Shown here piece by piece: positions 556-16,150 of a stretch of DNA of 64,000 nucleotides (positions within the stretch are counted from its first letter, which is position 1; every line of letters begins with the position of its first letter). The translations under genes were made by a program, and so were the position numbers. The notes beneath the pieces are model-generated. The model ran no database searches, was not told the DNA's origin, and worked only from the letters and a program-made list of their open reading frames with translations. This DNA comes from an uncultured Acidimicrobiales bacterium (GTDB lineage: Bacteria > Actinomycetota > Acidimicrobiia > Acidimicrobiales > SZUA-35), in contig CAWDNZ010000004.1 in NCBI GenBank assembly GCA_963803845.1, positions 962,572 to 1,026,571 on the forward strand, read 5' to 3'.

Positions 556-1893
556 ATGAAGCTTCGATCGGTTCTTGCGCTGCTGTTCACATTCGCGCTT
601 GTCAGCGCTGCCTGTACGGGGGGCTCCACGGCGGTAGACGATCCGCCCGCTGCCGATGACAGCGCTGCTGATGACAGCGCTGCCGATGACAGCGCTGCCG
701 ATGATGGCGCAGCCGATGATGGCGCAGCCGATGATGGCGCAGCCGATGATGATGCTGCTCCGCCGTCGGCAACCGGTCTCGACATCGACACGATCCTCGC
801 CGCAGATTTGAACAACTGCGCCCCCGCCCCCACCGGGGACCCGATCAAGGTGGGCATGGCGATGGACTTCAGCGAGGTAGTCGGCTTCGTGGACATCCCC
901 GGCTCCAAGCTCGTGCCCTATGTCGCTGAACTGATCAACTGCACCGGTGGAATCAACGGTTCACCGGTTGAGGTGCAGGTGCAGGACGTTGGCGGCGACG
1001 CCGGTAAGGCCGCTCTGGCCACGGACGAGCTTCTGAACTGGGGCGCGCAGTTCCTTATCGGTCCACCATTTGCCGATTTCGCTCTCCCAATTCTCCAGAC
1101 CACCGAAGGCAAGGTGCCGCTCTTCCTGGCGGCTTCCACCGAGCCAACGTTGCCAGATGCCAGCATCAACTCCTTCAACGTCTCGTTCGATGACACGCTG
1201 CAATCCACCGCCGCTGCCAAATGGGCGCTGGATCAGGGCATTACCCGGGCGATCGTGTTCACCGAGGGTCAGGGAATTGCCTATTCCGGCTACAACCCGG
1301 ACGTGTTTGCTGAAGTGTTTACCGCCGGTGGCGGCGAAGTGGTCAGCACCCAAACCTATGTCTGGGGGGCCGACACCGACTTCTCCGCCCAGGTAAATGA
1401 AATCGCCGGGCTCTCTGAAAACAACGAAGTGGTCTTCTCGGCCGCACTCGCTTTCCAAGTGACCGCACTTCGGGGCCAGCTGGAGGGCCAGGGCCTCGAC
1501 TCGCTCACCTACATCGGAACCGACGCGTTGGATGCAACGGGTATTTCCTTTGAGGACAACAACGAAGGCATCGCCCACACCCCCCATGTCACAATCGTGG
1601 CGGGGGATCGCAACGACAAGCTCCTCGCCGACTTCGCCGCCGCGGAGGGTGAAGAGCTTGAGAGCCGGGGCTTCATGCCGCTGTACGTTGACTCCATGTT
1701 CCTGGGCATCCAGGGGATTCTCGATTGCGGTTGCACCGATTCCGAGGGCATCGGTGCCGCCGTTGCCCAGATCTCCGGATTCCAGGGCCTCTCGGGTGAG
1801 ATCACCTACGCCGGAACCAACGGGATCCCCACCAAGAAGGTTCCAGTTCACCGGATCGTGAACGGCGAAGACGTCCAGGTTGACGTGAAATAA
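556..1893 (+). CDS. ABC transporter substrate-binding lipoprotein, LivK / Peripla_BP_6-like (branched-chain amino acid / amide type)
   Basis: Signal peptide plus lipobox (ALVSAAC), an acidic pentapeptide-repeat tether, then a type I periplasmic binding fold. First gene of a liv-like operon. Confidence 0.8.
   Translation: MKLRSVLALLFTFALVSAACTGGSTAVDDPPAADDSAADDSAADDSAADDGAADDGAADDGAADDDAAPPSATGLDIDTILAADLNNCAPAPTGDPIKVGMAMDFSEVVGFVDIPGSKLVPYVAELINCTGGINGSPVEVQVQDVGGDAGKAALATDELLNWGAQFLIGPPFADFALPILQTTEGKVPLFLAASTEPTLPDASINSFNVSFDDTLQSTAAAKWALDQGITRAIVFTEGQGIAYSGYNPDVFAEVFTAGGGEVVSTQTYVWGADTDFSAQVNEIAGLSENNEVVFSAALAFQVTALRGQLEGQGLDSLTYIGTDALDATGISFEDNNEGIAHTPHVTIVAGDRNDKLLADFAAAEGEELESRGFMPLYVDSMFLGIQGILDCGCTDSEGIGAAVAQISGFQGLSGEITYAGTNGIPTKKVPVHRIVNGEDVQVDVK
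649..753 (+). repeat. In-frame 15-bp tandem repeat x7 (GCNGCYGATGAYNRY) encoding AADDS/AADDG pentapeptides
   Basis: Units read directly at 649, 664, 679, 694, 709, 724 and 739. Confidence 0.95.
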
Positions 1894-1903
1894 CGTTCAA
1901 CCG

Positions 1904-2617
1904 ATGATCGAGATCTCGGGCCTGACAACCAGATATGGCGCGATCTCGGCACTTCGAGATGCCAGCCTGAGGGTTGACTCCGGTGAGGTGGTTGGCCTCA
2001 TCGGGCCAAACGGTGCCGGCAAGACCACGCTTCTCGGAACTATTGCAGGACTGCTCAAACCGGACGCAGGAACCGTCACGTTGGAGGGGCGGGATATCAC
2101 TGGCGCGTCGCCCGAAGTGATCCTGCGAGCCGGTTTGGCGCTGGTCCCGGAACACCGACGGATCTTTGTGGACATGACCGTGGAGGAAAATCTGAAGATC
2201 GGCGGCACCACCCGGTCAGCCTCGGAACGTGCGGCTCAGCTGAAGGAAATGAACCAGCTGTTTCCAGTCCTTGCAAACCGCTTCGACACCCCGGCCGGCT
2301 ACCTGTCCGGGGGAGAAGCCCAGCAGCTCGCTATCGCTCGGGCCCTGATGTCAAAGCCAAAGCTGTTGATGATGGATGAACCCACTCTGGGCCTAGCGCC
2401 ACTGCTGGTGGATGCCATCTTTGCCCTCATCGATCGCCTGCGATCGGAGGGAACAACCATCCTGGTGGTGGAGCAGAATGCCACCAGGATGCTCAGAGCT
2501 GCGGACAGGGCCTATGTCCTGCGCAGCGGGGCTGTGGTGGCCGAGGGGACGGGGCCAGAACTGCTGGCCCGAACCGACCTGTTCGACACGTTCGTGGGCG
2601 CGGGGCCAGCGTCATGA
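1904..2617 (+). CDS. livF: Branched-chain amino acid ABC transporter ATP-binding protein (LivF-like)
   Basis: Walker A GPNGAGKTT, signature LSGGEAQQ, Walker B LLMMDEP. Confidence 0.85.
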   Translation: MIEISGLTTRYGAISALRDASLRVDSGEVVGLIGPNGAGKTTLLGTIAGLLKPDAGTVTLEGRDITGASPEVILRAGLALVPEHRRIFVDMTVEENLKIGGTTRSASERAAQLKEMNQLFPVLANRFDTPAGYLSGGEAQQLAIARALMSKPKLLMMDEPTLGLAPLLVDAIFALIDRLRSEGTTILVVEQNATRMLRAADRAYVLRSGAVVAEGTGPELLARTDLFDTFVGAGPAS

Positions 2618-3501
2618 CCGGGTTTCTTCAGAACCTGATCGATGGCGTCGGGCGGGGCAGTATCTATGCGCTTCTGGCGTTGGGCATTGCGGTGATCTTC
2701 GGTGTGATGCACCTCTTGAATTTTGCCCACGGTGAACTCATCACAATCAGCGGCTACGCCGCATATGCAGTATTCCAGAGCGGGTGGTCTTGGTATCTCG
2801 TAGCTCCACTTGTGATCGTTGTTTCGATCCTTACCTCGCTGGTGATCGAGCGGGTGGCGTTCAGCAGGGTTCGAGGGGCGTCAGACTTCACGCTCCTGCT
2901 CACCTCCTTTGGTATTCACTTCCTCGTCCAGGCGATGTTCCTGATGTATGTCTCCGCATCGGTCAAGTCGTTCCCGCGTCCCAGATGGGTGACGAGCACT
3001 TATTCGATCGGACCTTTGAGCGTTGAAGTGTTCGACACCGTCGTCATTGGCGTCACCATCGTCACCCTCGCCGCGACGGCGGCGTTACTTCAACGAACCA
3101 TGTTCGGGCTGGCGCTTCGGGCCGCGGCTGCTGATTTCGACACTGCCCGGCTCATGGGGGTGCGCTCGGATTCGGTGATCCGCGGCGCTTTTGCACTCTC
3201 TGGTCTCCTGGCAGGCATCGCCGCCATCTTCTGGCTGATGCGATCGGGCAGCACCACACCAACGGCCGGCATCGACCCCATGCTGAAAGGGGTGCTGGCT
3301 GCCCTTATTGGCGGGTTGGGGAGTTTGCGGGGTGCAGTACTTGGCGGGCTCGTGCTCGGAATCACCGAGGTGCTATTGCGCTCTTGGCTCCCCGGCGGCG
3401 TCGCCGCGCTCACCGAGGGCGTGGTGTTCGGGCTGATCGCTCTTCTCTTCATCTTCCGGCCCCAGGGTCTCATCACCGTTGCCCATGCGGAGCGCGTCTG
3501 A
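2614..3501 (+). CDS. livH: Branched-chain amino acid ABC transporter permease (LivH-like)
   Basis: Polytopic membrane protein with a LivH-like N-terminus (FLQNLIDGVGRGSIYALLALG); start overlaps the livF stop. Confidence 0.85.
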   Translation: MTGFLQNLIDGVGRGSIYALLALGIAVIFGVMHLLNFAHGELITISGYAAYAVFQSGWSWYLVAPLVIVVSILTSLVIERVAFSRVRGASDFTLLLTSFGIHFLVQAMFLMYVSASVKSFPRPRWVTSTYSIGPLSVEVFDTVVIGVTIVTLAATAALLQRTMFGLALRAAAADFDTARLMGVRSDSVIRGAFALSGLLAGIAAIFWLMRSGSTTPTAGIDPMLKGVLAALIGGLGSLRGAVLGGLVLGITEVLLRSWLPGGVAALTEGVVFGLIALLFIFRPQGLITVAHAERV

Positions 3502-5357
3502 TGTTCCCCAATCTCAAGAGAGACGTGGCCTTCCCAGTTGTGGGGTCACTGCTCCTCTTCGGTCTAGTGCTGGGCGCCGGCCTTATCTATCAGGTGCTGG
3601 TGGGCGGAGCATCCGAACGGCTCGTAACCGCAATGCTCATCGACGCAATAATGGTGATCGGTATCCAGATCTACATTGGAAATACCGGCGTCTTGTCCTT
3701 CGGTCATATCGGCTTTGGCGCCATCGCTGGCTACGCCTTCGCTGTTCTGGCGATTAGCCCCGAGCAGAAAGCCAAAGTCCTGCCCAACGCCCCATTCGGA
3801 CTCACCAACAATGGGCTCATTCCTGCGGGAGCAGTGGTAGTGGCCATCATCGTCACGGTGGCCGTGGCGGTTATCGTCGGTCTGGGTTTGGCCCGCTCGG
3901 GCGCTCAATCGGGGGCGGTATCGGCAACCGTCATAACCCTGGCGTTGCTCTTCGTGACACATGAGGTTGCTCGAAACTGGACCGAGCTAACCGGTGGCAA
4001 TCGAATCGGGCTGTCCTTCCAGATCGGCGGGAAGCTGAATTCCCGGATCCCGATTCTGCTGGCGCTGGCCGCGTCGATCGTGGTGGCGAGAGTGTTCGCC
4101 CAAAGCCGCAGTGGGCGATTGGCCGCGGCCGCCCGTGAAGACAATCTGGCCGCTCGCGCCATGGGCGTAAACCCGCTCGTGCAGCAGATGGTGGCCCTGC
4201 TGCTCTCCGTCGTTGTGGTCAGCGTTGCGGCTTCGTTGCGGGTGTTCGAGACCGGCACCATCCTCCCCAATCAGTTCTTCTTTTCCTATACCTTGCTCAC
4301 GCTCGTGATGTTGATCGTGGGCGGGCGCAACAGCGTCACCGGTGCAGTGGTGGGGACCATGGTGATCACCGCCGGAAGTGAGCTGGCCCGCCGTATGGGC
4401 ACGTCCGGATTTGAGTTCTTCGGGCTCGGACTCGACGACGCTCCGGCTGACTGGATCTTCCGAGAGGGTCTCCCCACTGTCTTTCTCGGCGCGGCCATGG
4501 TGGGCTTCATGATTTGGAGGCCCATTGGCCTACTGGATGATTGGGAACTGGATGAGTGGCTGTTCGAGCGATTTGGCCGAGGCGAGGATCTTCAGCCGAG
4601 TGGTCTCCCCGAGGTGGCCGACACTCCCGTGGCCCGCCTCGCCGCCACGGGGATCGATGTCCGCTTTGGAGGGTTTCAGGCGCTCGATCAGGCTGGCCTC
4701 ACAGCCACCAGTGGTGAAATCGTGGGGATCATCGGACCCAATGGCGCCGGGAAAACCACGCTGGTGAACGTGATCACCGGCATGGTTCCGCCGACCGCCG
4801 GCGAGTTTTCCATCGATGATCGGGATCTCACCCGGGCCCCGGCCCACATCCTGGCCAGGACAGGTTTGGTTCGGACCTTTCAGAACCTCCGGCTCTTCGG
4901 TGCGCTCACAGTTCGCGAGAACGTTGAGGCGGCGGCGCTGGTGGCCCGAGAACACCGGTCCCACCGCATTCTTCCCGATGCCGATTCACTTGTTGCCGAG
5001 GCGGGCTTGTGGGAACACCGTAATCGCCGGGCTCGGGAGCTGGATTACGGCAACTCCCGGCGGCTCGAGTTGGCTCGGGCGGCAGCCATGGCCCCGGCGT
5101 TCATGCTGCTCGACGAGCCCACCAGCGGCATGAGCGACACGGAGTCCATCACCATGATCGAGCAGGTGCGCCATATGGCTGCCACGGTGGGCGCCGGTGT
5201 GATCGTCATCGATCACGATCTCAACTTCATCACTGGGATCTCAGACCGAATCTACGTTCTCGATCAGGGCCAAGTCATCGCTGAGGGGACACCTACCGAG
5301 GTCCAGGCCGACCCGCTGGTTCAGGCCGCCTACCTGGGATACGAAGCGGAGGCGTAG
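3501..5357 (+). CDS. Fused LivM-like permease / LivG-like ATPase
   Basis: ATG at 3501 overlaps the livH TGA (TGATG). The track ORF from 3384 is an Arg-rich extension inside livH. N-terminal ~10 TM region, then C-terminal GPNGAGKTT...LLDEPTSG. Confidence 0.8.
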   Translation: MFPNLKRDVAFPVVGSLLLFGLVLGAGLIYQVLVGGASERLVTAMLIDAIMVIGIQIYIGNTGVLSFGHIGFGAIAGYAFAVLAISPEQKAKVLPNAPFGLTNNGLIPAGAVVVAIIVTVAVAVIVGLGLARSGAQSGAVSATVITLALLFVTHEVARNWTELTGGNRIGLSFQIGGKLNSRIPILLALAASIVVARVFAQSRSGRLAAAAREDNLAARAMGVNPLVQQMVALLLSVVVVSVAASLRVFETGTILPNQFFFSYTLLTLVMLIVGGRNSVTGAVVGTMVITAGSELARRMGTSGFEFFGLGLDDAPADWIFREGLPTVFLGAAMVGFMIWRPIGLLDDWELDEWLFERFGRGEDLQPSGLPEVADTPVARLAATGIDVRFGGFQALDQAGLTATSGEIVGIIGPNGAGKTTLVNVITGMVPPTAGEFSIDDRDLTRAPAHILARTGLVRTFQNLRLFGALTVRENVEAAALVAREHRSHRILPDADSLVAEAGLWEHRNRRARELDYGNSRRLELARAAAMAPAFMLLDEPTSGMSDTESITMIEQVRHMAATVGAGVIVIDHDLNFITGISDRIYVLDQGQVIAEGTPTEVQADPLVQAAYLGYEAEA

Positions 5358-5364
5358 AACCGCA

Positions 5365-6366
5365 ATGCGAGCAGTTGTCCTCCCCCAGTCGAATGCGGAA
5401 TTGCTCGTCGTTCCGGACCATCTCGAACCCGAGGCGGACGATGGCGTGGTTCTCGATGTCACGGCGTGCGGGATCTGTCATTCCGACCTTCACGTTGTGG
5501 ACGGCGACTACGGCAAAGAGCCGCCGATCATCCTCGGGCATGAGGTCACCGGTGTCCATCCCGAACTGGGCCCGGTCATGCTGTATGCGCCGTGGGGCTG
5601 TGGGAATTGCCCGCAATGCGATCAGGGCCTGGAGATGCTGTGTCCCAACTCCAGCGAAGCGGGGTTGTTCACCGATGGTGGCTACGCCGAGCGGATGCGC
5701 ATTCCCAACCTGTCCTATCTGACCCCGCTCAACGGGCTGGATCCTTATGACGCAGCGCCACTGGCGTGCGGTGGGCTCACCGCATATCGGGCCGTACTTC
5801 ACGGCCTCGATCGCCTTCGCCAACGGGGTTCGGCAGCTCGGGCATTGATCATTGGGGCGGGCGGGCTTGGCCAATACGCCATCCGTTACCTTCGCCTTCT
5901 GACCGACGCCACGGTGGTGGCACTGGATCTCTCCCAGGCCAAACAGGCAACTGCGCTCGAGCTTGGTGCCCATCAGGCCGTTGTTGCTCTTGGTGGCGAA
6001 GAGCCGTTTGATCTGGTGATCGACTTCATCGGTGTTGAATCAACCTTGGCAACGGCGGCCGGGAGCGTGGCTCGCCTAGGACTGGTGGTGGTGGTGGGGC
6101 TTGGGGGTGGATCCATCCCGTTCGGTTTTGGGTCCGTACCGTTGGAGGCCCGTTTTGTCGCCAGTGTCTGGGGGAGTCGAGACCAGATGGATGAGCTGCT
6201 CGATTTCGCCCGCCGCGAACCATCGATCGTGCAACCGGTGGAGGTGCTGCCCTTGGCCGCCGCCCAGACAGCGCATTACCGTCTACGGGCGGGTGAAGTT
6301 CGCGGCCGTTTGGTGCTGGACATCAACGGAACCCGCACCCCTCAACCTGATGCACCTGATCGTTAG
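5365..6366 (+). CDS. Zinc-dependent alcohol dehydrogenase (MDR family)
   Basis: CGICHSDLH catalytic-zinc motif, GHEVTG, and a GAGGLG Rossmann motif. Confidence 0.85.
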   Translation: MRAVVLPQSNAELLVVPDHLEPEADDGVVLDVTACGICHSDLHVVDGDYGKEPPIILGHEVTGVHPELGPVMLYAPWGCGNCPQCDQGLEMLCPNSSEAGLFTDGGYAERMRIPNLSYLTPLNGLDPYDAAPLACGGLTAYRAVLHGLDRLRQRGSAARALIIGAGGLGQYAIRYLRLLTDATVVALDLSQAKQATALELGAHQAVVALGGEEPFDLVIDFIGVESTLATAAGSVARLGLVVVVGLGGGSIPFGFGSVPLEARFVASVWGSRDQMDELLDFARREPSIVQPVEVLPLAAAQTAHYRLRAGEVRGRLVLDINGTRTPQPDAPDR

Positions 6367-6404
6367 TCAATTCACTAATCCACCCCAATCTGGAGGAACT
6401 CACA

Positions 6405-7754
6405 ATGGCCGGAATCTCAAGATCGATCGAGGAGTTTCGGTCGGTAGCGAACGAACACGATCTGCACACGATCGAGCTTGCGGCCCCCGACACCCAGGGC
6501 CACCTTCGCGGCAAACGTATCCCGGCCAAGCGGTTCCTGAACGGCATTCACGCCAGCGGTGCCAAGGTTGCGGATGCGATTTTTGTGTTCGATATCCAGA
6601 ACGATTTGCCGGACAATGAATTCGTCAACATGGACACCGGCTACTTGGATGCGCACCTGATCCCGGACAACTCCAGCGGCCGAGTGCTCACTCACCGGCC
6701 GGGGTATGGCCTGGTCTTCGCCGATGCGGCCGACGAACACGGGAATCCCCATCCGCTCGCGCCTCGAAGCGTTCTCGCCGCTCAAATCGAACGCTGTCGG
6801 GCCGCCGGCGTGGATCCGTTCGTGGCGACCGAGTTGGAGTTCTACCTCTGCACTCCGGACTGGGAACCGGCGCAGAACTACATCCAATACAGCTCGGTCA
6901 CCGATGCCCTCGAGTTTGAACCCGTTCTGCATGCGATGCGTAGCGCATTGCTCGGTGCCGGTATCGACGTGGAGTCGAGCAACGCCGAATACGGCCCCGG
7001 CCAGATAGAGGTGAACGCCGGTCCCGCCGATGCCTTGACCGCAGCTGACAATGCCACGTTGTTCAAGAGCATCATCAAGCAAGTAGCCGTACAGCACGGG
7101 ATCCGAGCTTCCTTCATGCCCAAACCCTGGGCGGACCATTCGGGCTCCGGTCTACACGTCCACACCAGCCTCAATGCCGACGGGTCCAATGCGTTTGCGC
7201 CTTGCACCACCGGCGAACCCAATGAGCTCATGCGAAAATGGCTGGCCGGCATCCTGGCCAACGCCAGCGCTCTCACACTCTTGGGAGCCGCCACCATCAA
7301 CGGGGGCAAGCGAATCCGCCCCTACACGTTTGCTCCAACGCATGTGACCTGGGGGCTGGACAACCGCACGGTCATGGCGCGCTGCATCGCCGAATCCGAT
7401 TCGGGGGCAAATCGGGTGGAATACCGGAGCGCGGGAGCGGACGCCAACAACTACCTGATGATCGCCGGGCTCCTCGCCGCCGGAATGGATGGGCTGGAGC
7501 GGAATCTCGACCCCGGCCCGATGAGCGTTGGCGACGTGTATGCCGACCCCGGTGATCATGCACCGATCCCTGCCGATCTCCCGTCGGCCATTGCGGCTTT
7601 CTCGGGCAGTTCATTGGCGTCGCAGTTAGGCGACACGTTTTCCCGTAGCTTCGTGAGCATCGCCGAGGCCGAGGTTGCATTGGCGGTTGAGCATGCCGGC
7701 GGCGCCGACAAGGTGAACGATTGGGAACGGGCTCGTTTCATGGAGCACAGCTAG
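6405..7754 (+). CDS. Glutamine synthetase family protein (gamma-glutamyl-amine ligase type, GlnA3/PuuA/IpuC-like)
   Basis: GS catalytic-domain hallmarks (EFYL..., NAEYGPGQIEVN, SGLHVH..., VEYRSAGADANNYL). Confidence 0.8.
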   Translation: MAGISRSIEEFRSVANEHDLHTIELAAPDTQGHLRGKRIPAKRFLNGIHASGAKVADAIFVFDIQNDLPDNEFVNMDTGYLDAHLIPDNSSGRVLTHRPGYGLVFADAADEHGNPHPLAPRSVLAAQIERCRAAGVDPFVATELEFYLCTPDWEPAQNYIQYSSVTDALEFEPVLHAMRSALLGAGIDVESSNAEYGPGQIEVNAGPADALTAADNATLFKSIIKQVAVQHGIRASFMPKPWADHSGSGLHVHTSLNADGSNAFAPCTTGEPNELMRKWLAGILANASALTLLGAATINGGKRIRPYTFAPTHVTWGLDNRTVMARCIAESDSGANRVEYRSAGADANNYLMIAGLLAAGMDGLERNLDPGPMSVGDVYADPGDHAPIPADLPSAIAAFSGSSLASQLGDTFSRSFVSIAEAEVALAVEHAGGADKVNDWERARFMEHS

Positions 7755-9040
7755 TGTGCCCCGCAGCCCCAGCAACCTCTCCTGTGACCGGCCCGAACGT
7801 CACCGACGCATCGCTGTATCTGAACGGCATTCCCTATGACCGGTTTGAACAAATGCGAAACACGCCCGGTCTGGTGTGGCATCCTTACGGCGACGATGGG
7901 TTTTGGGCGGTCACGCGTCATAGCGAAATCAAGGAAGTCTCCAAGAACTCCGAGGTTTTCTCCTCGGCGATCGGGCACACCAATCTGTGGGACCTCGAAG
8001 CGGACGCGCTGGAAGCACGACGATCCCTTATCGACACCGACGGCGCCGACCACACTCGACTTCGCCGTCTGATCGCTCGCTCCTTTACGCCCAAGAATGT
8101 CCGCCGCTGGGAAGACACAGTTCGCTCCATCACCACCGAACTCTTGGACAAATTCGTGGCTGCCGGAGGTGGCGATTGGGTGGAGCTGGTGGCAGCCCCG
8201 TTGCCGATCCGGGTGATACTTACGATGCTTGGCGTCCCCGTGGAAGACGCTGGCTATTTGGTGGAGCTGTCCAATTATCTGGTGGAGGGCACGGGTGAGA
8301 GCCAGTCGATTCCCGCCGACGCTTTCGGCAACACCACCGAACTTCGCTTGCTGCCCTTCAACAGTCCGGCCAGCCATGCCCTCTATGAATACGGGGAGAA
8401 GCTGGCGGCGCTGCGAAGGGCGGACCCCCAGGACGATCTGGTGACCAGCCTTGTGCAAGCAGCCCAGGAGGAGGGCAACCGACTGAGCGGGAGCGAATAC
8501 CGCAATCTGTTCCATCTGCTGGTTTTCGCCGGCAACGAGACCACCCGTACCGCCATTTCCCATGGAGCGATCGCCTTGGCGGATCATCCCGACCAATGGG
8601 ATCGAATCCTCACCGATCGCAGTCTCATCGAGTCCGCCACCGAGGAGATTCTGCGGTGGTCCACGCCGGTGATGCACATGCGCCGCACCACCAGCTGTGC
8701 CACCGAGTTGGCGGGCACCCCGATCACTGCTGGTCAAAAAGTGGTGATGTGGTATGGCTCGGCCAACCGCGACGAAACCGTCTTTGATGATCCATTCATG
8801 TTCGATGTTGGCCGCGTCGACAACCCTCACTTCGCCTTCGGCGGCGGCGGGCATCACCTCTGCCTCGGCGCCTTCTTGGCCCGGTTGGAACTGATCATTC
8901 TGCTGGAGGAAATGACCACCAGGAACATATCCCTGGAACGAACGGGCGAACCTGTCCGCACCCCGTCCAATTTCGTTCACGGGATTCTCTCCGTTCACAT
9001 GACCGTCAGCACAAACCCCAGGAGTGACCAGCATGAGTGA
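7754..9040 (+). CDS. Cytochrome P450 (paralog 1)
   Basis: Heme loop FGGGGHHLCLG, AGNETT I-helix, EEILRW. GTG at 7754 overlaps the upstream TAG; 7721 and 7784 are alternative starts. Confidence 0.9.
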   Translation: MCPAAPATSPVTGPNVTDASLYLNGIPYDRFEQMRNTPGLVWHPYGDDGFWAVTRHSEIKEVSKNSEVFSSAIGHTNLWDLEADALEARRSLIDTDGADHTRLRRLIARSFTPKNVRRWEDTVRSITTELLDKFVAAGGGDWVELVAAPLPIRVILTMLGVPVEDAGYLVELSNYLVEGTGESQSIPADAFGNTTELRLLPFNSPASHALYEYGEKLAALRRADPQDDLVTSLVQAAQEEGNRLSGSEYRNLFHLLVFAGNETTRTAISHGAIALADHPDQWDRILTDRSLIESATEEILRWSTPVMHMRRTTSCATELAGTPITAGQKVVMWYGSANRDETVFDDPFMFDVGRVDNPHFAFGGGGHHLCLGAFLARLELIILLEEMTTRNISLERTGEPVRTPSNFVHGILSVHMTVSTNPRSDQHE

Positions 9041-9056
9041 GCAGATCGAAGAGCCA

Positions 9057-9257
9057 ATGGTTCAACTGGCAATCGATGCCGATGTCTGCATCGGCGGCGG
9101 GCAATGCGAGATGGTGGAGCCCGAGACGTTCATCGTTGATGACGAGACCGTGATCGCCCGGTTCATCGGACCGCCCGAGCTGCCGAAATCTCGGGCCGAA
9201 CTCGTGGTGGAACGGTGCCCCAGCGGGGCCATCTCGGTCGTCTCGAACGCCAGCTGA
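9057..9257 (+). CDS. Small ferredoxin (3Fe-4S type, P450 redox partner)
   Basis: MVQLAIDADVCIGGGQCEMVEPETF...ERCPSGAISV. CxxGxxC...CP pattern. The track start at 9024 would overlap the P450. Confidence 0.8.
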   Translation: MVQLAIDADVCIGGGQCEMVEPETFIVDDETVIARFIGPPELPKSRAELVVERCPSGAISVVSNAS

Positions 9258-10720
9258 TGGAGACCTACGACAACTGGATCAACGGCTCCTTTGTGGTGCC
9301 GGCGGAAGGTCGGCGAATGCTGACGTCCAACCCGTACACCGGTGCGGCGTGGGCCGAAGTGGCGGATGATCCGACCGCGGTCGATGTAGCGGTACGGGCC
9401 GCCCGGGCGGCTTTCGAAGACGGGCCATGGGCTACGATGTCGGGCCAGGAACGCGCTCGCTGTATGCGCCGACTGGGTGAGCTCACCACCCGTGAGGCCG
9501 ATGCTCTCGCCAAGATCGAAACGCGCGACAACGGCAAGATCATCCGGGAGACCACCGCTCAAGCCAAGAGTCTGCAGAGCTATCTCGACTACTTCGCCGG
9601 CATGACCGACAAGATCGTTGGTCAACAGATCCCCAGTCCTTCACCCAATTTCTTGGTTTACACCGAACGCGTACCAAAAGGCGTGGTGGGAGCGATCATC
9701 CCGTGGAATTCGCCGCTGGCTCTGCTCACTTGGAAGCTAGGTCCACTCTTGGCCTCGGGCTGCACGGTGGTGGTGAAGCCATCGGACATCACCCCGGTCA
9801 CCGCCCTGCTGCTGGCGCAGCTGGCAAGCGAGGCCGGGTTCCCTGACGGTGTGATCAACGTGGTGACCGGTGGTGCGGAGGTTGGTGCCGGCATTACATC
9901 GCATCCCGGCATCGACAAGATCACCTTCACCGGCGGGGGCGCCACGGCTCGGCACGTGGCTCGGGCGGCCGCCGAGAACCTCACGCCAACGGTGTTGGAA
10001 TTGGGAGGAAAGTCCCCCCAGATTCTCTTTGCCGACGCCGATCCCGAGGCAGCTACCAATGGTCTGCTGGCCGGGATCTTTGCCGCCAGCGGGCAGACGT
10101 GTGTCGCCGGTTCGCGGGCGTACATTCACGTTGACATCGCAGACGAGATCATCGCACGGCTCGTGAAGCGCGCCGGCGAATTGGTCCTGGGCGATCCCAG
10201 CGACATCGCAACCGAGATGGGCCCGGCGGCGTCCGATGCCCAGCGTGATCGAATCATCTCGATGGTGGATAAGGCCCGAGCAGAGGGCGCTACGATCGCC
10301 GCCGGGGGTGTAGTTGATCCAGAGTTGGGTGGACGGTTCGTCCGGCCCACCGTGATCACCGGTGTCGACAACCAAACATCGATCGTCCGGGAAGAGGTTT
10401 TCGGCCCGGTGCTGGCGGTGATGACCTTCACCGACGAGGACGAGGTAGTCGAACTGGCCAACGACTCCGACTACGGCCTTGCTGCCGGGGTCTGGACCAA
10501 CGACATCCGTCGCGGCCATCGCATGGCCCGCAAACTCAACGTTGGCACAGTCTGGATCAACACCTACCGCAACGTTAGCTACATGGCGCCCTTCGGTGGC
10601 TTCAAACAGTCCGGTTACGGTCGGGACAACGGGCTGGAAGCTCTCGACGGCTTCCTTCAGACCAAGACCGTGTGGGTTGAGTTGGCGGGCGCAACTCGCG
10701 ACCCGTTCGTGGTGGGCTAG
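9257..10720 (+). CDS. NAD(P)-dependent aldehyde dehydrogenase
   Basis: METYDNWINGSF start overlaps the ferredoxin stop (TGATG). ELGGKSP and the GQTCVAGSR catalytic Cys are present. Confidence 0.9.
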   Translation: METYDNWINGSFVVPAEGRRMLTSNPYTGAAWAEVADDPTAVDVAVRAARAAFEDGPWATMSGQERARCMRRLGELTTREADALAKIETRDNGKIIRETTAQAKSLQSYLDYFAGMTDKIVGQQIPSPSPNFLVYTERVPKGVVGAIIPWNSPLALLTWKLGPLLASGCTVVVKPSDITPVTALLLAQLASEAGFPDGVINVVTGGAEVGAGITSHPGIDKITFTGGGATARHVARAAAENLTPTVLELGGKSPQILFADADPEAATNGLLAGIFAASGQTCVAGSRAYIHVDIADEIIARLVKRAGELVLGDPSDIATEMGPAASDAQRDRIISMVDKARAEGATIAAGGVVDPELGGRFVRPTVITGVDNQTSIVREEVFGPVLAVMTFTDEDEVVELANDSDYGLAAGVWTNDIRRGHRMARKLNVGTVWINTYRNVSYMAPFGGFKQSGYGRDNGLEALDGFLQTKTVWVELAGATRDPFVVG

Positions 10721-11235
10721 TTGGGCTCGTGCGGGGTGTTCGGCTGCACGATCACGGCTTGCAGGAGCGTGGCGAGCTCGTTGATCTGCGGGCCGGTCAA
10801 GCCGCCCAACATCGCACCCGCTCTCTGATTGAATCGGGGAAACACCCTCTGAATGACCTCCTCGCCCTCGGGGGTGAGCGAGGTGTGCATTCGCCGGCGG
10901 TCCCGGTTGGTCCGGCGTATCTTCACCAGGCCCTGCGTCTCCAGTCCTTTCCTCACACCGGTGAGGGTTCCCAGCGTGAGGCCCAGCTCGGCGGCCAGAC
11001 GGGAGCTGTCCATCTCGCCCCACACCCACAGCACCCACAGCACGGCGAAGCCGCTCCACGAAAGGCCCTCCTCGGTCAGCACCTCCCGCTCGGCGGTGCG
11101 GCTCACCACGGTCGCAGCTCGGTAGATGTTGGAGACCGCTCGTTCCACCTCAAGGTCCACTGGCTGGCCCTCAAGCCGGGAGCGAATATCGGATTCGGCC
11201 TTCAGAAGAGCATCGGGGTCATAGTCATAGGGCAC
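10717..11235 (-). CDS. MarR family transcriptional regulator (MarR1)
   Basis: Winged-helix region LAAELGLTLGTLTGVRKGLETQGLVKIRRTNRDRR. GTG start at 11235. Its stop overlaps the convergent ALDH stop (CTAG). Confidence 0.85.
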   Translation of the reverse strand: MPYDYDPDALLKAESDIRSRLEGQPVDLEVERAVSNIYRAATVVSRTAEREVLTEEGLSWSGFAVLWVLWVWGEMDSSRLAAELGLTLGTLTGVRKGLETQGLVKIRRTNRDRRRMHTSLTPEGEEVIQRVFPRFNQRAGAMLGGLTGPQINELATLLQAVIVQPNTPHEPN

Positions 11236-11264
11236 GGCGCTTCCTTGCCACGGCGGGAGGGAGT

Positions 11265-11293
11265 TTGAGGTTGCTTTGGGTCCAAAGTAACGT
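11265..11293 (+). promoter_or_regulatory. Putative promoter TTGAGG-N17-TAACGT with operator CTTTGGGTCCAAAGT (11274-11288) in the spacer
   Basis: Same 15-nt core and same position in the spacer as at 505-519; lies in the divergent marR1 / P450-2 region. Confidence 0.5.
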
Positions 11294-11347: not shown

Positions 11348-12592
11348 GTGACCCCCGCCGCCGCGCCCATCGATTTGAACGATCCGGCAACGTTCGCGGC
11401 CGGGATTCCTCACGAGGGCTTTTCCCAGATGCGAGCCGCCCCGGGGTTGTGTTGGTCCCCCGCCGGCCGGGGCGCAACGGCCGGCTTCTGGTCTGTCGCT
11501 CGCCACGCCGATCTTGGTGTGGTCTCCCGCGACTCCGCAACCTATTCCTCGGCCGTCGGCCATATCCAGATCTACGACATCGACGTTGACGCTCTGGATG
11601 CTCGGGCCTCCATGATCGACATGGACCCGCCGATCCACACCCGGCTACGGCGACTGGTGAGTTCGGCATTCACTCCTCGACATGTGCTGGCCTACACCGC
11701 GGCGGTTCGAAACCGCATACGCGCCGCGCTGGATGACCTTCAGGTCAACGGCGGTGGAGACTGGGTGAAGACGGTGGCTGCTCCGATCCCGATTGGCGTG
11801 ATCTGCGATCTGATGGGTGTTCCTGAAGAGGATCATCGCTACATGATCGAACTCTCGGATCATCTCGTAGCAGGCACCGGACAGGAGCCGTTGGAGCCCA
11901 CTGCGTACGGCAACACCACCGAGCTCCGGCTGCTCCCGTTCAACAGCCCGGCCGCATCGGCGATGTCCGCCTACGCCAACAAACTGGCCGACCGCCGCCG
12001 CTTGGCTCCAACTGACGATCTGATCTCCAAACTGATTACGGCCGAGATCGACGGTGAGCGACTGACACCCGACGAGTTCGCCAACTTTTTCCGGCTCATG
12101 ATTTTCGCTGGCAACGAAACCACGCGGTCGTCCATGGCCCACCTCGCCCTTCACCTCCAGCAGTTCCCGGATGCGTTTGCCGCGGTGGAACGGGATCGCT
12201 CACTGCTCCCTGCCGTGGCAGATGAGGTCATCCGTTACTCCTCGCCCATCCTCTACTTCCGGCGCACGGTCACTAAGGCAACCGAACTCGCCGGCACCCC
12301 GCTGACCGTTGGCGACAAGGTTGTCATGTGGTATGCATCGGCCAACTTCGACGCAACGGTCTTTCCCTCACCGCAGGAGTTCCGGGTGGATCGGCCGTCG
12401 GTCCCTGCCCATGTGGCTTTCGGCGGCGGTGGGGCTCACTATTGCCTCGGCGCCTCCCTGGCCCGGCTGGAAGTTTCCGTACTCATCGACGAGATCCTCG
12501 ATCGGCGGTTGCGGCCGGTCTCCACCGGCCAGCCGATCTTTGTGGAATCCAACTTCGTCAACGGCATAGAGTCACTCCCGGTGCACCTATGA
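11348..12592 (+). CDS. Cytochrome P450 (paralog 2)
   Basis: FGGGGAHYCLG, AGNETT, GTG start. Clearly paralogous to P450-1 (shared GNTTELRLLPFNSPA). Confidence 0.9.
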   Translation: MTPAAAPIDLNDPATFAAGIPHEGFSQMRAAPGLCWSPAGRGATAGFWSVARHADLGVVSRDSATYSSAVGHIQIYDIDVDALDARASMIDMDPPIHTRLRRLVSSAFTPRHVLAYTAAVRNRIRAALDDLQVNGGGDWVKTVAAPIPIGVICDLMGVPEEDHRYMIELSDHLVAGTGQEPLEPTAYGNTTELRLLPFNSPAASAMSAYANKLADRRRLAPTDDLISKLITAEIDGERLTPDEFANFFRLMIFAGNETTRSSMAHLALHLQQFPDAFAAVERDRSLLPAVADEVIRYSSPILYFRRTVTKATELAGTPLTVGDKVVMWYASANFDATVFPSPQEFRVDRPSVPAHVAFGGGGAHYCLGASLARLEVSVLIDEILDRRLRPVSTGQPIFVESNFVNGIESLPVHL

Positions 12593-13791
12593 CGGTTGAT
12601 GCCTTTGGCGCCCCGGTTGCGGCTGCTTCACCCGAATCGGTGATGGCGTGGGATGCGGCATGGATGGATTTTTACCACTTCGAGGGGCAGGCATTCCGGC
12701 TGCTGGCCGCCGCCAACGACACCGATGACGCCTTCGCCCTGGGGTCTGTCTTTTGCGGCACTTATCGGATCTTGGGTGGATCCGCCCCCGATTCGTACCG
12801 GGTCCAAACGGATCTGGAACGAGCCCGCACCCGCTCGAGCAGCGACCGCGAGCTCAGCCATTTGGACGCTCTGGGCCATATGGTCGATGGCGACTTCAGC
12901 CGTGCCGCCAAACGCTGGGATAGTATTGCCGCCGCCTGCCATGATCTGGCCGCAGTGCGATTCGCTCACGATGTCTACCTGCATGTAGGTGATGATCACG
13001 GCCGGCTCGCTTCCAGTTCGCGGGCTGCCGCCGATTGGCCAAAGGACGCCGCCGGCGGTGGATTCGTGCTTGGTCAATACTCCTTCGCACTGGAGGAGGC
13101 CGGTGACTACGCCGCCGCGGAAGATGTCGGTTGGCAGGCGTTGGAACGTGACCATCGGGACCTCTGGGCTCTCCACGCCCTCGCCCATGTCTATGAGAGC
13201 ACGGAGAGTCATACTCAGGCCTTGGATCTCCTGCGAGGGCGAATGGAAACGTGGAGCCAACAGCCAGCCCTCGCCACGCACATTTGGTGGCATCTTGCGC
13301 TCCGTCTGATCGCCGCCGGATCCTTCGACGAGGTGTTGGCGATCCACGACTCGCTCCAGCCCGAGACAACGATGCCGTTCGGGCTCAGTGATTTGGCCTC
13401 GCTCCTCTGGAGGCTCGAATTGGTGGGAGTGGATGTTGGTGGTCGGTGGAAGCCCCTCGCCGACGCGTTCGCATCCCGGCACGAGCAGCACACCGTTGGG
13501 TTTCTCGACCTTCACTTTGCGCTGGTCTTTGCCCGCTGTCCGGATCATCCCGCCGCAGCGACGTTCTTCGCCAGCGTCCTCGAGCGGCACGCTGGTGCGG
13601 CCGAGAACAACGAGACTTTTCAGAATGTCGTGAAACCGCTCACCGAGGCGATTCGGATCAGCGGCAGCCAACCCGATTGCGCCCTCACACTGCTGCAATC
13701 GATCGAAGCCGATACGTATCGGATCGGCGGCAGCATCGCCCAACGAGACCTGATCAACCGAACCCGGACGGCCCTGGAGGCGCACCGATGA
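12589..13791 (+). CDS. TTC38-family tetratricopeptide-repeat protein
   Basis: ATGA overlap with the P450-2 stop. Blocks RFAHDVYLHVG, HIWWHLALRLI and IGGSIAQRDL align with my recollection of TTC38. Confidence 0.7.
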   Translation: MTVDAFGAPVAAASPESVMAWDAAWMDFYHFEGQAFRLLAAANDTDDAFALGSVFCGTYRILGGSAPDSYRVQTDLERARTRSSSDRELSHLDALGHMVDGDFSRAAKRWDSIAAACHDLAAVRFAHDVYLHVGDDHGRLASSSRAAADWPKDAAGGGFVLGQYSFALEEAGDYAAAEDVGWQALERDHRDLWALHALAHVYESTESHTQALDLLRGRMETWSQQPALATHIWWHLALRLIAAGSFDEVLAIHDSLQPETTMPFGLSDLASLLWRLELVGVDVGGRWKPLADAFASRHEQHTVGFLDLHFALVFARCPDHPAAATFFASVLERHAGAAENNETFQNVVKPLTEAIRISGSQPDCALTLLQSIEADTYRIGGSIAQRDLINRTRTALEAHR

Positions 13792-14993
13792 CATGGCAAC
13801 TCAGCCCCGAACAGATCGACCTTCAGACTCGGGCCCGACAACTGGCCACCACCGTGATCGGGCCGCGTGCGGTTGAGGTCGACGCCGCGGAGCAGTACCC
13901 GTGGGAGAACGTCGCGGCGCTCAAGGAGGCCGGTTTCACCGGGATGACCGTTCCCCGGGAGCTGGGCGGGGCGGGCCGATCCTTCCTCGATGCCGTCCTC
14001 GTTGTGGAGGAGATGGCCAAGGTGTGTGGCGTAACCGGCCGTATCGCCGTGGAATGCAACATGGGAGCGATCTCGGCGGTGATGGCGTACGGGACCGATG
14101 GGCAGAAGAAGCTCGCTGCTGACCTCGTACTCAATGGCGACAAGCCAGCGATCTGCATCACCGAACCTGGTGCCGGTAGCTCGGCGTCACAGATGACAAC
14201 TCGCGCCGATCGAGTTGGCAGCGACTACGTCTTGAACGGCAAGAAACACTGGATCACGGGTGGAACCGTGTCGTTGCTTCACCTGATTTTCGCTCGGGTG
14301 TTCGATGAGGATGGGAACGAGGAGGGGATCGGTGGCTTCTTGGCAGTGCGCGATGAAACTCCCGGCCTGAGCTTTGGAAAACGGGAGCCGACCATGGGGC
14401 TTCGAGGTATCCCGGAGATGGAGGTGATCTTCACCGACATGCTGATCCCCGCCAGCATGGTGCTGATGCCGCCCTCCGGTTTCAAACGGGGCTTCGCAGA
14501 CCTCATGAACGCCTACAACTCTCAGCGGGTGGGGGCCGGAACGGTGGGCCTGGGAATCGCCCAAGGCGCTTACGAGCTGGCGTTGGCCTATGCCAAAGAA
14601 CGCCAACAGTTCGATCGCCCGATCGCCGAGTTCCAGGGACTTCAGTGGATGCTGGCAGACATGTCGGTGAAGCTGGAGGCGGCCCGCAGCCTCACCTACC
14701 GTGCGGCGGAGTCTCGGGGGGCAGACGGGTCGCCGTTTCCCGATGCCGCAATGGCCGCTCAGGCCAAGATCTTTACCGCCGAGGCGGCGATTCAAGTGGT
14801 GAATGATGCCCTTCAGGTCTTTGGGGCGGCCGGTTACAGCCGGGACAATCCGTTGGAACGCATGTACCGCGACGTTCGTATGTTCACCATCGGTGGAGGC
14901 ACGGCTCAAATCCTCCGCACCGTGGTTGCGTCTCGAATTTTGGATATGAAACTGCCGCAGACCCGCGGCGGGTTCCTCCCTCGTGACGCCTGA
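13788..14993 (+). CDS. Acyl-CoA dehydrogenase
   Basis: ATGA overlap start (MTWQLSPEQIDLQ...). Canonical ACAD blocks, including the C-terminal IGGGTAQILR. Confidence 0.9.
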   Translation: MTWQLSPEQIDLQTRARQLATTVIGPRAVEVDAAEQYPWENVAALKEAGFTGMTVPRELGGAGRSFLDAVLVVEEMAKVCGVTGRIAVECNMGAISAVMAYGTDGQKKLAADLVLNGDKPAICITEPGAGSSASQMTTRADRVGSDYVLNGKKHWITGGTVSLLHLIFARVFDEDGNEEGIGGFLAVRDETPGLSFGKREPTMGLRGIPEMEVIFTDMLIPASMVLMPPSGFKRGFADLMNAYNSQRVGAGTVGLGIAQGAYELALAYAKERQQFDRPIAEFQGLQWMLADMSVKLEAARSLTYRAAESRGADGSPFPDAAMAAQAKIFTAEAAIQVVNDALQVFGAAGYSRDNPLERMYRDVRMFTIGGGTAQILRTVVASRILDMKLPQTRGGFLPRDA

Positions 14994-16150
14994 TGCCTGC
15001 TCCTCTCGACGGTGTCCTTGTGGTGGCTCTGGAGCAAGCCGTGTCTGCCCCCTTTGCCACCCGTCAACTGGCCGATCTCGGCGCTGAGGTCCTCAAGGTG
15101 GAGCGCCCCGGCGAGGGAGAGTTCGCCCGGCACTATGACTCCGCAGTTGGGGGAACGTCGGCGTTCTTCGTGTGGGCCAACCGCGGCAAGCAGAGCATCG
15201 AGCTGGATATCAAGAATCCCACCGATCGGGCCACACTCGACCGCTTGATCGCGGGGGCCGACGTCTTCATCCAGAATATGTCGACCGCAGCAGCCGGTCG
15301 GCTGGGGCTGCTGGCTGATCAGCTCCGAGTGACCAATCCGAAGTTGATTGCGTGTGACATTTCGGGATATGGCCAGGGCGGTCCTCGAACCGACGACAAG
15401 GCATACGACCTCGCCATCCAGGCGGAAGCCGGCGCCATCGCCCTTACCGGAAGCGCCGAGGCCGTCTCAAAGGTGGGGTTCTCTGTGGCCGACATCAGCT
15501 CGGCGATGTATGCGTTCTCTTCCATCCTCGCTGCCTTGTATCGACGTCAGGCGACCGGTGAGGGCGCTTCGATCGAGGTGTCGATGTTGGAGAGTCTGGC
15601 CGAATGGACCGCCGTCCCCACCTATGCCGCCGTTGGACGGGGCGTGATCCCGCAACGGGCGGGCCATCGCCATGCCATGATCGCTCCGTACGGGATGTAT
15701 GCCCTCGCTGACGGCGAGATCATCATGATCGCAGTGCAGAGCAATCGGGAGTTCGTGTCGTTTGCCGAGCATGTACTTTGTGATGCAACCCTGAGCGAGG
15801 ACGTGAGGTTCGTCAACAATGACGACCGGATCGCCAACATCACCGCTCTCGAGAATGTGATCAACGAGACCTTTCGTTCGGTACCTGCGGGTGAGATCCG
15901 GGACCGCCTCCGGCTTGGCCGGATTACGCACAGCTCGGTTCGGGATCCGCATTCCCTGTGGCAGCACGAACAGCTACGGGCTCGGGGCCGCTTCATGACC
16001 GTGACCACCCCAACGGGCGAGGCCGAGGTCTATCGGTCACCGTTCAATATCAGCGGGGTTTCTGCACCACTCGCCACGATTCCGGCCCTCGGCGAGGACG
16101 CCACCGGGATCGTCGCTCGACTACTCGAACGGGCGGACCAGGGTGCCTGA
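14993..16150 (+). CDS. Family III CoA-transferase (CaiB/BaiF/Mcr-like)
   Basis: N-terminal LDGVLVVALEQAVSAPFATRQLADLGAEVLKVERP signature. Confidence 0.85.
   Translation: MPAPLDGVLVVALEQAVSAPFATRQLADLGAEVLKVERPGEGEFARHYDSAVGGTSAFFVWANRGKQSIELDIKNPTDRATLDRLIAGADVFIQNMSTAAAGRLGLLADQLRVTNPKLIACDISGYGQGGPRTDDKAYDLAIQAEAGAIALTGSAEAVSKVGFSVADISSAMYAFSSILAALYRRQATGEGASIEVSMLESLAEWTAVPTYAAVGRGVIPQRAGHRHAMIAPYGMYALADGEIIMIAVQSNREFVSFAEHVLCDATLSEDVRFVNNDDRIANITALENVINETFRSVPAGEIRDRLRLGRITHSSVRDPHSLWQHEQLRARGRFMTVTTPTGEAEVYRSPFNISGVSAPLATIPALGEDATGIVARLLERADQGA

Follow-up and report, generated by a model that had tools for sequence, protein, structure and literature searches.

A 64,000-nucleotide stretch of DNA from an uncultured Acidimicrobiales bacterium (contig CAWDNZ010000004.1), here called the window, carries at positions 5365-10720 an operon for a Zn-dependent alcohol dehydrogenase (ADH), a glutamine synthetase (GS)-like ligase, a cytochrome P450, a ferredoxin and an aldehyde dehydrogenase (ALDH). 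Behind it lie a MarR-family regulator gene and a second operon, in which another P450 accompanies a desulfinase (Acd) of the AcdA type. Our analysis points, with evenly balanced confidence, to an Ipu-like pathway that would gamma-glutamylate an imported amine and would form one MarR-controlled unit with a module that converts 3-sulfinopropionate to propionyl-CoA. The new point that the data suggest is the joining of a GS-like/P450 amine cluster to 3-sulfinopropionyl-CoA desulfinase enzymes, in many genomes and in two phyla. Protein families, gene order, coupling, conservation, the shared candidate operator and membership of the desulfinase family were assigned from sequence.

The gene content and order of 5365-10720 were confirmed by open reading frame (ORF) listing and by Pfam and NCBIfam scans, and the importer upstream and the divergent GATase-fold gene were found as the initial annotation had described them. 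The ADH (5365..6366, +; ADH_N and ADH_zinc_N domains) lies directly upstream of the ligase; its best NCBIfam matches, AdhP and Ahr, were both under cut-off. The ligase, a predicted gamma-glutamyl-amine synthetase (6405..7754, +; Gln-synt_C, E 4.6e-80), is followed by the cytochrome P450 'a' of a CYP125/124-like clade (P450a; 7754..9040, +; PF00067) and by a small three-Cys ferredoxin (9033..9257, +; Fer4_19 and Fer4_13). The only cysteines of the ferredoxin are those of CIGGGQC...CP (CxxGxxC...CP), a pattern that fits the [3Fe-4S] type. The last gene encodes an NAD(P)-dependent, aminoaldehyde/betaine-aldehyde-like ALDH (9257..10720, +; Aldedh, E 3e-163), which reached 501 bits on the BADH model, 452 on that for aminobutyraldehyde dehydrogenase and 398 on PuuC, all under cut-offs.

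Translational coupling had been claimed for the whole operon. The TAGTG and TGATG overlaps are present, but the ADH and ligase genes are separated by a 38-nt spacer without overlap, and a separate GGAGG serves the ligase gene. The ligase/P450a junction reads TAGTG at 7752-7756, with the likely P450a start at GTG 7754. P450a and the ferredoxin overlap in ATGAGTGA, with an AGGAG ribosome-binding site upstream and a likely ferredoxin start at ATG 9033. The ferredoxin/ALDH junction reads TGATG at 9255-9259, and the ALDH likely starts at ATG 9257. A scan for promoters and terminators was uninformative in this GC-rich genome.

Upstream of the ADH lies a whole Liv-type importer (556-5357). It consists of a Liv/HAAT-type substrate-binding protein (556..1893, +; Peripla_BP_6, E 2e-30), an ABC ATPase (1904-2617, +), a BPD_transp_2 permease (2614-3501, +) and a permease-ATPase fusion (about 3501-5357, +), with ABC_tran, BPD_transp_2 and BCA_ABC_TP_C domains across 1904..5357. 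The binding protein was too distant from solved structures for ligand inference. Divergent from the importer, the window edge cuts a class I GATase-fold, IpuF-like protein (1..432, -; N-terminal 144 aa; PF00117, E 1e-8) with the nucleophile motif GVCFGGQ. The fragment matched NCBIfam 'glutamine amidotransferase' models at E 1e-17, under their cut-offs. It is 57% identical to a full-length 241-aa orthologue in related locus L001, and 35% identical over 74 residues to AAur_pTC10062, one of the GATases in the ipu cluster of pTC1. Orthologues of full length were found in 18 related loci, and a PuuD-like C26 hydrolase lies just past the GATase in 24 orthologous loci; the equivalent position here is beyond the window.

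The identity of the ligase was examined by model scores, residue alignment, plasmid searches and a tree. On NCBIfam models it scored 233 for GGputSyn (cut-off 650) and 177 for GlnA (cut-off 429). When the ligase was aligned with GlnA and PuuA of E. coli, positions E129, E131, E212, E220, G265, H269, R321, R339, R344, E357 and R359 (GlnA numbering), which are the GS metal, ATP and glutamate residues, were invariant; the list of functional residues was taken from PMC6529630. The Asp50 and Tyr179 regions of GS align too poorly with the ligase for any call. At the Glu327 flap position the ligase has Phe309, and this Phe is invariant in its family. Glu327 is also replaced in GlnA4 (F331) and PauA7 (W296), a change described as marking enzymes that have lost glutamine synthesis (PMC6529630). 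In a search of 72,556 plasmids, the top matches to the ligase included the IpuC-annotated gamma-glutamylisopropylamide synthetases of Paenarthrobacter aurescens TC1, at 36-37% identity, and a Microbacterium homologue of IpuC type, at 38%. PuuA was 30% identical, and GlnA gave only a 202-residue local match. In a partial neighbour-joining tree, from which GlnA2-4, TdnQ and the IpuC of Pseudomonas KIE171 were absent, the ligase grouped with the IpuC type and a Mesorhizobium homologue, with PuuA outside and GlnA as outgroup; it did not cluster with bona fide GlnA. Because the GlnA score is far under cut-off, the Glu327 flap is lost and the IpuC type is nearest, the ligase is assigned by sequence to the gamma-glutamyl-amine-synthetase type (IpuC-like) and not to true GlnA.

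P450a had been described as CYP125/124-like, and CYP125 (266 bits), CYP268A2 and CYP124 (252 bits) were indeed its nearest solved structures. Membership of a named P450 family requires at least 40% identity to a named member. By this rule P450a is borderline, with 40.8% identity to CYP125 (4apy) over 380 aligned residues and 38.0% over 408 alignment columns; identity to the reconstructed CYP125MRCA was 46.7%. P450a carries the motifs AGNETT and FGGGGHHLCLG, and its heme loop, FGGxGxHxCxG, has the same length as in the CYP125 and CYP124 enzymes of mycobacteria. It differs from these in an insertion of 11-13 residues, and no sterol or lipid genes lie nearby. The insertion, GNTTxLRLLPFNSPA, is found in P450a, in its paralogue P450b of the second operon (49% identical) and in a P450 of the same clade from Mesorhizobium loti (related locus L088, 19488-20741, -). 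Its position x is E or P, giving GNTT(E/P)LRLLPFNSPA, and CYP125 and the P450s of ipu clusters lack the insertion. A third window P450 of the clade (P450c; 23866-25128, -) has a divergent form of it. The insertion could serve as a clade signature.

The ligase and the P450 belong to a known scheme. In the Ipu pathway, isopropylamine is converted by IpuC to gamma-glutamylisopropylamide, which a multicomponent P450 hydroxylates to gamma-glutamyl-L-alaninol; an amidotransferase-type hydrolase and then alcohol and aldehyde dehydrogenases act in later steps (PMC6776027). In the ipu regions of Paenarthrobacter pTC1 and Microbacterium pYJNG, a GS-like ligase is accompanied by two GATases, by ALDHs and an ADH/SDR (SDR, short-chain dehydrogenase/reductase), and by a P450 with a ferredoxin and a ferredoxin reductase. 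The inventory of ligase, P450 plus ferredoxin, GATase and ADH/ALDH is what the window shares with the Ipu systems of Pseudomonas sp. KIE171 and of P. aurescens TC1 (pTC1, pTC2). A GS-P450 pairing is thus not new, since it defines the Ipu pathway, and the description as a different pairing holds only for the P450 lineage: P450a is 32% identical to the pTC1 and 29% to the pYJNG enzyme, has the clade insertion and is not their orthologue. Other differences are that the window is without ferredoxin reductase and alanine dehydrogenase, has a Liv-type ABC importer where Ipu has an APC permease, and adds a paralogous P450, a TPR-like protein and the desulfinase module.

Conservation was assessed in 80 genome loci fetched around ligase orthologues, mostly from Acidimicrobiales with a few from Arenicellales and Acidiferrobacter. 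Loci were scored by tblastn with all window proteins, and counts are given over 82 loci with ligase orthologues of 63-77% identity. More widely, ligase homologues numbered hundreds at 66-78% identity, almost all in Acidimicrobiales or in Actinomycetota metagenome-assembled genomes (MAGs). P450a follows the ligase in 74/82 loci, an arrangement far beyond chance. The GS-like/P450/ferredoxin core is conserved, with the ferredoxin itself in 57/82 loci, and the ADH was found in 50/82 and Liv importer genes in about 53/82; where at least 8 kb of upstream sequence was available, the binding protein had an orthologue in 45/64. Further counts were P450b 42/82, Acd 35/82, ALDH 31/82, MarR 25/82, the TPR-like protein 25/82, GATase 18/82 and CoA-transferase 13/82. 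Downstream flanks of 8 kb or more were available for 59 loci, of which 32 had Acd, 35 had P450b and 37 had Acd or the CoA-transferase. In many Acidimicrobiales the genes form one co-directional string, from importer through ADH, ligase, P450a, ferredoxin, ALDH, P450b and TPR-like protein to Acd, in some cases with the CoA-transferase, and with MarR at the end; in the window, unlike these strings, MarR stands mid-cluster.

These results also bear on whether ligase and P450 act together at all. Were they uncoupled, the GS-like protein would be a glutamine synthetase of nitrogen assimilation, and the P450 would oxidise free lipids or sterols. The approximately 41% identity of P450a to CYP125 fits this, as does the reading given by the authors of a Gulosibacter study, who took a GS gene beside pipA-like P450s as serving nitrogen assimilation (PMC9477822). 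The lost flap residue and the low GlnA score argue otherwise, as do the translational overlap of ligase and P450a, their adjacency in 74/82 loci, the lack of sterol or lipid catabolic genes nearby and an importer of the amino-acid/amine type. We consider uncoupled functions very improbable.

The initial annotation ended the unit at 10720. This limit could not be kept: a shared operator, synteny and an analogous cluster in another phylum indicate functional continuation into 10717-16961. The MarR-family gene (10717..11235, -; PF01047, E 1.7e-9) is convergent with the ALDH gene and divergent from the second operon; its best NCBIfam match, HpaR, gave 44 bits, under cut-off. An ORF of 179 residues on the opposite strand to MarR (10729-11268, +) had no family match and is most likely a shadow ORF. 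The second operon is tightly coupled, with ATGA, ATGA and TGATG junctions and then 8- and 4-nt overlaps. It encodes P450b (11348..12592, +; paralogue of P450a, 60% identical to the M. loti P450), an all-alpha TPR-like protein of 400 residues without Pfam or NCBIfam family (12589..13791, +), a 3-sulfinopropanoyl-CoA desulfinase of AcdA type with acyl-CoA dehydrogenase (ACAD) fold (13788..14993, +; NF042439), a class III (CaiB/BaiF) CoA-transferase that is a candidate Act analogue (14993..16150, +; CoA_transf_3, E 2e-96) and an alpha/beta-fold hydrolase, predicted to be co-transcribed (16143..16961, +; Abhydrolase_1, E 3e-29).

The desulfinase carries the sulfur part of the argument. It scored 657 bits on NCBIfam NF042439, above the equivalog cut-off of 600, and 520 bits (E 3.6e-155) against PDB 5af7, the structure of Advenella AcdDPN7; by this curated cut-off the product of 13788-14993 is a member of the 3-sulfinopropanoyl-CoA desulfinase family. 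Identity to annotated acdA products of Paraburkholderia, Cupriavidus necator N-1, Diaphorobacter and Mesorhizobium was 62-64%. Arg84 (in GRI) and Gln246 (in YNSQR) are kept, both of which we take to have roles in AcdA, Arg84 in the active site. The YEG motif is replaced by GGG, so that the catalytic Glu is absent; AcdDPN7 has AGG, and AGG instead of the YEG catalytic base is a feature of the desulfinase branch (PMC8360864). The CoA-transferase gene follows directly, with a TGATG overlap, and its product matched the succinate-glutarate and oxalate CoA-transferase models under cut-off.

This pair of genes has a precedent. In the known route, Mdo oxidises 3-mercaptopropionate to 3-sulfinopropionate, which Act, a class III CoA-transferase, or SucCD activates, and AcdA then cleaves the thioester to yield propionyl-CoA plus sulfite; in Variovorax, act and acdA are neighbours (PMC6370202). 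The canonical Diaphorobacter cluster is act-acdA-cdo. The window shares with the Act/SucCD-AcdA module of Advenella mimigardefordensis DPN7 and Variovorax paradoxus TBEA6 a desulfinase beside a class III CoA-transferase, the same neighbourhood as that of acdA-act in V. paradoxus and Diaphorobacter. It differs in having no Mdo, in the partners of the module (GS-like ligase, P450s, GATase-fold and TPR-like proteins) and in its actinobacterial host.

Evidence that the two operons belong together came first from their promoter regions. A 16-bp palindrome, ACTTTGG-NN-CCAAAGT, has exactly two matches in the 64 kb, against 0.15 expected. One lies in the GATase/importer promoter region (504..519, no strand assigned; ACTTTGG-GT-CCAAAGT) and the other between MarR and P450b (11273..11288, no strand assigned; GCTTTGGGTCCAAAGT). 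It is a candidate MarR operator, and the candidate sites are written ACTTTGGNNCCAAAGT. An exact search in the first five related loci gave no match, and a relaxed search over all loci succeeded: TTTGG-NN-CCAAA occurs at 21 sites in 1.6 Mb of related loci, each in an intergenic position that is either 17-92 nt away from the start of MarR or on the upstream side of the importer operon. Loci with this motif include L010, L014, L018, L022, L028, L062, L032, L038, L039, L045 and L047; in L010, L014, L018, L028 and L062 it lies 17-71 nt from the MarR start.

A second line of evidence was an analogous set of genes in another phylum, found within 13 kb on plasmid pML2037 of M. loti NZP2037 (L088, record positions 249743-262803). 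The set, with gene tags A9174_RS34705-34755, comprises a LysR regulator, a CaiB/BaiF CoA-transferase, a 3-sulfinopropanoyl-CoA desulfinase (62% identical), a sulfate-exporter-family protein, a PuuD-like hydrolase (40% to PuuD), a GS-like ligase (37%), an APC permease, a TPR protein, a reductase-type 2Fe-2S protein, a P450 (60% to P450b, 50% to P450a), an alpha/beta hydrolase (38%) and a Zn-ADH. Genes for propionyl-CoA carboxylase and methylmalonyl-CoA mutase lie directly upstream, and ring-cleavage genes are lacking from the cluster. A sulfate-exporter-family protein was sought in the window and not found.

The TPR-like protein ties the halves together. Its gene overlaps both neighbours, P450b and the desulfinase, by ATGA. 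Sequence searches of Pfam, NCBIfam and PDB gave it no match; AlphaFold models it with confidence (pLDDT 94.9), and Foldseek returned only generic TPR folds (TM <=0.52). Many of its His, Asp, Glu and Trp positions do not vary, and the M. loti homologue (L088 14126-15457, -; 28% identity over its full length, E 5e-46) keeps 26/38 invariant residues. Homologues on plasmids occur in unrelated contexts. The protein may be an unrecognised enzyme. In M. loti its gene is in an operon with ligase and P450, and in Acidimicrobiales with P450b and Acd; because it pairs with each half in a different phylum, the two halves are linked. Given the shared operator, the synteny and the independent cluster in another phylum, the MarR gene and the second operon (P450b, TPR-like protein, desulfinase, CoA-transferase) are most likely part of the same unit as the first.

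The reaction steps, the position of hydroxylation and the substrate that follow are all inferred from gene content. The Liv-type ABC importer would take up the amine, and the GS-like ligase would use ATP and glutamate to form the gamma-glutamyl amide. P450a, P450b or both would hydroxylate the alkyl part, with electrons delivered by the three-Cys ferredoxin and a reductase encoded elsewhere. ADH and ALDH would then oxidise the carbon to a carboxylate, and the GATase-fold proteins would regenerate glutamate and free the nitrogen. The resulting acid, presumably 3-sulfinopropionate (a C3 sulfur acid), would be activated by the class III CoA-transferase and split by the AcdA-type desulfinase into sulfite and propionyl-CoA. 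That a gamma-glutamyl-amine ligase feeds a P450, ADH/ALDH and a GATase hydrolase had already been proposed in the initial annotation, and this survived every computational test run (IpuC-type ligase, PuuC-like ALDH, Ipu inventory).

Hydroxylation beside the amide nitrogen would give glutamine and an aldehyde, rather than the amino-alcohol/amino-acid product of Ipu, and the GATase would then act as a glutaminase. We favour this site over Ipu-type terminal hydroxylation because the presumed final product is without nitrogen and because tblastn found no homologue of PuuB, PuuE, PuuD or alanine dehydrogenase in the 64 kb, four queries that span only part of the aminotransferase and amino-acid dehydrogenase families. 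The substrate had been considered unreadable from the sequence. The conserved desulfinase, together with the lack of a detected aminotransferase, suggests a C3 organosulfur amine. Candidates are homotaurine/homohypotaurine, 3-(methylthio)propylamine and related C3 sulfur amines. An additional sulfur oxygenase would not be required for homotaurine or homohypotaurine, in keeping with the minimal set of genes in M. loti. Thioethers such as 3-(methylthio)propylamine would need S-demethylation or oxygenation, for which P450b and the TPR-like protein are the sole candidates.

A bolder version of this proposal is tentative and falls short of even confidence. It holds that the genes encode a widespread, undescribed route in which a C3 organosulfur amine would be tagged with glutamate, oxidised by CYP125-like P450s of a distinct clade and passed through CoA-transferase and AcdA to propionyl-CoA, sulfite and ammonia, with the His-rich TPR-like protein as a new enzyme or essential partner. 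The substrates considered under it were homotaurine/homohypotaurine, 3-(methylthio)propylamine and a dimethylsulfoniopropionate (DMSP)-related amine. The Acidimicrobiales that carry the pathway genes originate from sponges, sediments, soils and activated sludge; one or more rhizobial plasmids carry them too.

Several observations weigh against the proposed pathway. No thiol dioxygenase (Mdo/CDO) was found by tblastn in the window or in 90 loci except for the Diaphorobacter reference, so that the origin of the sulfinate group has no explanation unless the substrate brings it along. The CoA-transferase is only 31-32% identical to the acdA-adjacent transferases of M. loti and Diaphorobacter. With the reductases of pTC1 and pYJNG as tblastn queries, no ferredoxin reductase homologue was found in the 64 kb. 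Of the loci whose flanks are long enough, about 46% are without an Acd orthologue nearby, and the gammaproteobacterial loci have only methyltransferase-ADH-GS-P450a-Fdx (Fdx, ferredoxin). In these Arenicellales and Acidiferrobacter MAGs a SAM-dependent methyltransferase precedes the core (L063 1517-2347, L074 144-1289), with no desulfinase nearby. Since these loci lack Acd, the core may work or travel independently of the sulfur module. A luciferase-like gene in the window, at first considered an SfnG/SsuD-type sulfur monooxygenase, proved to be of the F420-type luciferase-like monooxygenase (LLM) family (TIGR03619) and was dropped as sulfur evidence. Finally, the presence of Hpa-type and NicX-like genes means that operon adjacency could reflect a mosaic catabolic island.

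One alternative is a pathway of the general Ipu/Puu type that acts on an alkylamine or polyamine without sulfur, with the desulfinase/CoA-transferase operon as a separate neighbouring pathway. Gamma-glutamylation and terminal hydroxylation would be followed by ADH/ALDH oxidation to a gamma-glutamyl amino acid, and hydrolysis would yield the amino acid and glutamate. P450, ADH and ALDH are the classical set for terminal-methyl oxidation, CYP124 and CYP125 are terminal hydroxylases, and the ALDH shares 41% identity with PuuC of E. coli. Clusters of ADH-GS-P450a-Fdx without Acd, in the gammaproteobacterial and about 46% of other loci, and the mosaic nature of the island also fit it. Such a scheme would call for an enzyme to process the amino-acid product; the Ipu and Puu clusters carry an aminotransferase or amino-acid dehydrogenase, and none was found here with the four tblastn queries. 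The TPR gene, which links both halves across M. loti and Acidimicrobiales, and the MarR palindrome common to both promoter regions also speak against it. On balance the sulfur-free pathway is unlikely, and the joined amine and sulfur unit is preferred.

The mosaic character of the region was apparent from the genes that follow. Beyond the second operon, the same strand continues with an ACAD-fold flavin monooxygenase-like protein (16958-18169, +), a NicX-like dioxygenase (18242-19333, +; 197 bits to 7cn3) and a second GS-like ligase (19359-20684, +), all of uncertain relation to the pathway. The ACAD-fold protein gave 119 bits to 5gj7, with weaker matches to DszC, nitrososynthase and methanesulfinate monooxygenase, and resembles heteroatom-oxidising flavin monooxygenases. 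The two ligases share 31% identity in their best local alignment and 25% in full alignment. Acd is followed by this trio in L027 and L083, whereas in L002, L078 and L085 the trio precedes the importer. Next, 21301-28995 encodes an F420-dependent LLM oxidoreductase, an SDR, an HpaD-like LigB dioxygenase, P450c, an MppR/acetoacetate-decarboxylase-like protein and HpaG-like and HpaE-like genes, and looks like a homoprotocatechuate-type module. LigB and P450c lie beside the cluster in 12-17 related loci. A linear plasmid of Embleya sp. NBC_00896, a cultured relative of the streptomycetes (L094, ~980000-996000), has MarR and a GS-like ligase followed directly by a P450c-like P450, and it also encodes a ferredoxin reductase, a LigB dioxygenase and proteins resembling PuuC and PuuD; this locus looks like a related gamma-glutamylation/P450 design with ring cleavage in place of the desulfinase.

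Such genes raise the question of an arylethylamine substrate (tyramine or phenylethylamine). Here gamma-glutamylation would be followed by P450 oxidation to an arylacetaldehyde, conversion by the ALDH to an arylacetate, hydroxylation by P450c and homoprotocatechuate-type meta-cleavage by enzymes encoded at 23-29 kb. The match of MarR to HpaR, the 447 bits of the ALDH on the phenylacetaldehyde dehydrogenase StyD model, and the HpaD-like LigB, HpaE-like and HpaG-like genes and P450c 12-18 kb away are all consistent with this, as are the recurrence of LigB and P450c beside the cluster and the Embleya coupling of MarR, GS-like ligase, P450c-like P450, PuuC/PuuD-like genes and LigB. The LigB/P450c link, however, is seen in 12-17/82 loci against 35-42/82 for P450b/Acd. 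The Hpa-like genes lie on the other strand with eight genes between, the M. loti cluster is without ring-cleavage genes, and the NCBIfam scores are all well under cut-offs. An arylethylamine pathway is accordingly rated improbable, and the joined sulfur-amine unit is retained.

The known gamma-glutamylation and P450 systems were also compared with the window. The Puu pathway (E. coli PuuA-E) shares gamma-glutamylation, oxidation of the conjugate and hydrolysis, the 41% identity of the ALDH to PuuC and, beside orthologous clusters, the PuuD-like C26 hydrolases. It differs in its ligase (30% identity to PuuA, 233/650 on GGputSyn) and in that a P450 takes the place of the oxidase. The cyclic-amine P450 systems of actinomycetes (CYP151 PipA/MorA) have a GS-like gene beside a P450, a ferredoxin and a reductase in amine degraders, as documented for Gulosibacter (PMC9477822); unlike the window, these clusters carry a reductase and no desulfinase. 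Other GS-P450 cases are reportedly found in mycobacterial cyclic-amine degradation and in piperidine degradation by Pseudomonas sp. KU43P. No description of a GS-like ligase/P450 cluster joined to a 3-sulfinopropionyl-CoA desulfinase was found in the literature searched, a search that cannot prove absence.

Further downstream, a string of nuo (complex I) genes runs from ~30154 to 40128, with 30-kDa, 49-kDa, NuoH-like and NuoI/J-like subunits and three antiporter-like subunits. As this string follows the island, the island would be chromosomal and end near 29 kb.

Gamma-glutamylation of amines is recurrent in bacteria, as in Puu, Ipu, aniline and ethanolamine use, and AcdA desulfinases are known from the breakdown of industrial thio- and dithiodipropionate. 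A joined operon was found here in dozens of uncultured Acidimicrobiales genomes and, independently, on the plasmid of a cultured Mesorhizobium. This suggests a natural sulfur-amine substrate, and with it an ecological role for a desulfinase so far known from xenobiotics. Experimental handles are at hand in a cultivable strain, a candidate MarR operator, a distinct P450 clade and a conserved protein of unknown function. If the reading is true, organic sulfur and nitrogen would enter central metabolism through this unit at a point new to biology; confirmation would extend the organic sulfur and nitrogen cycling of marine and soil actinobacteria by one route.

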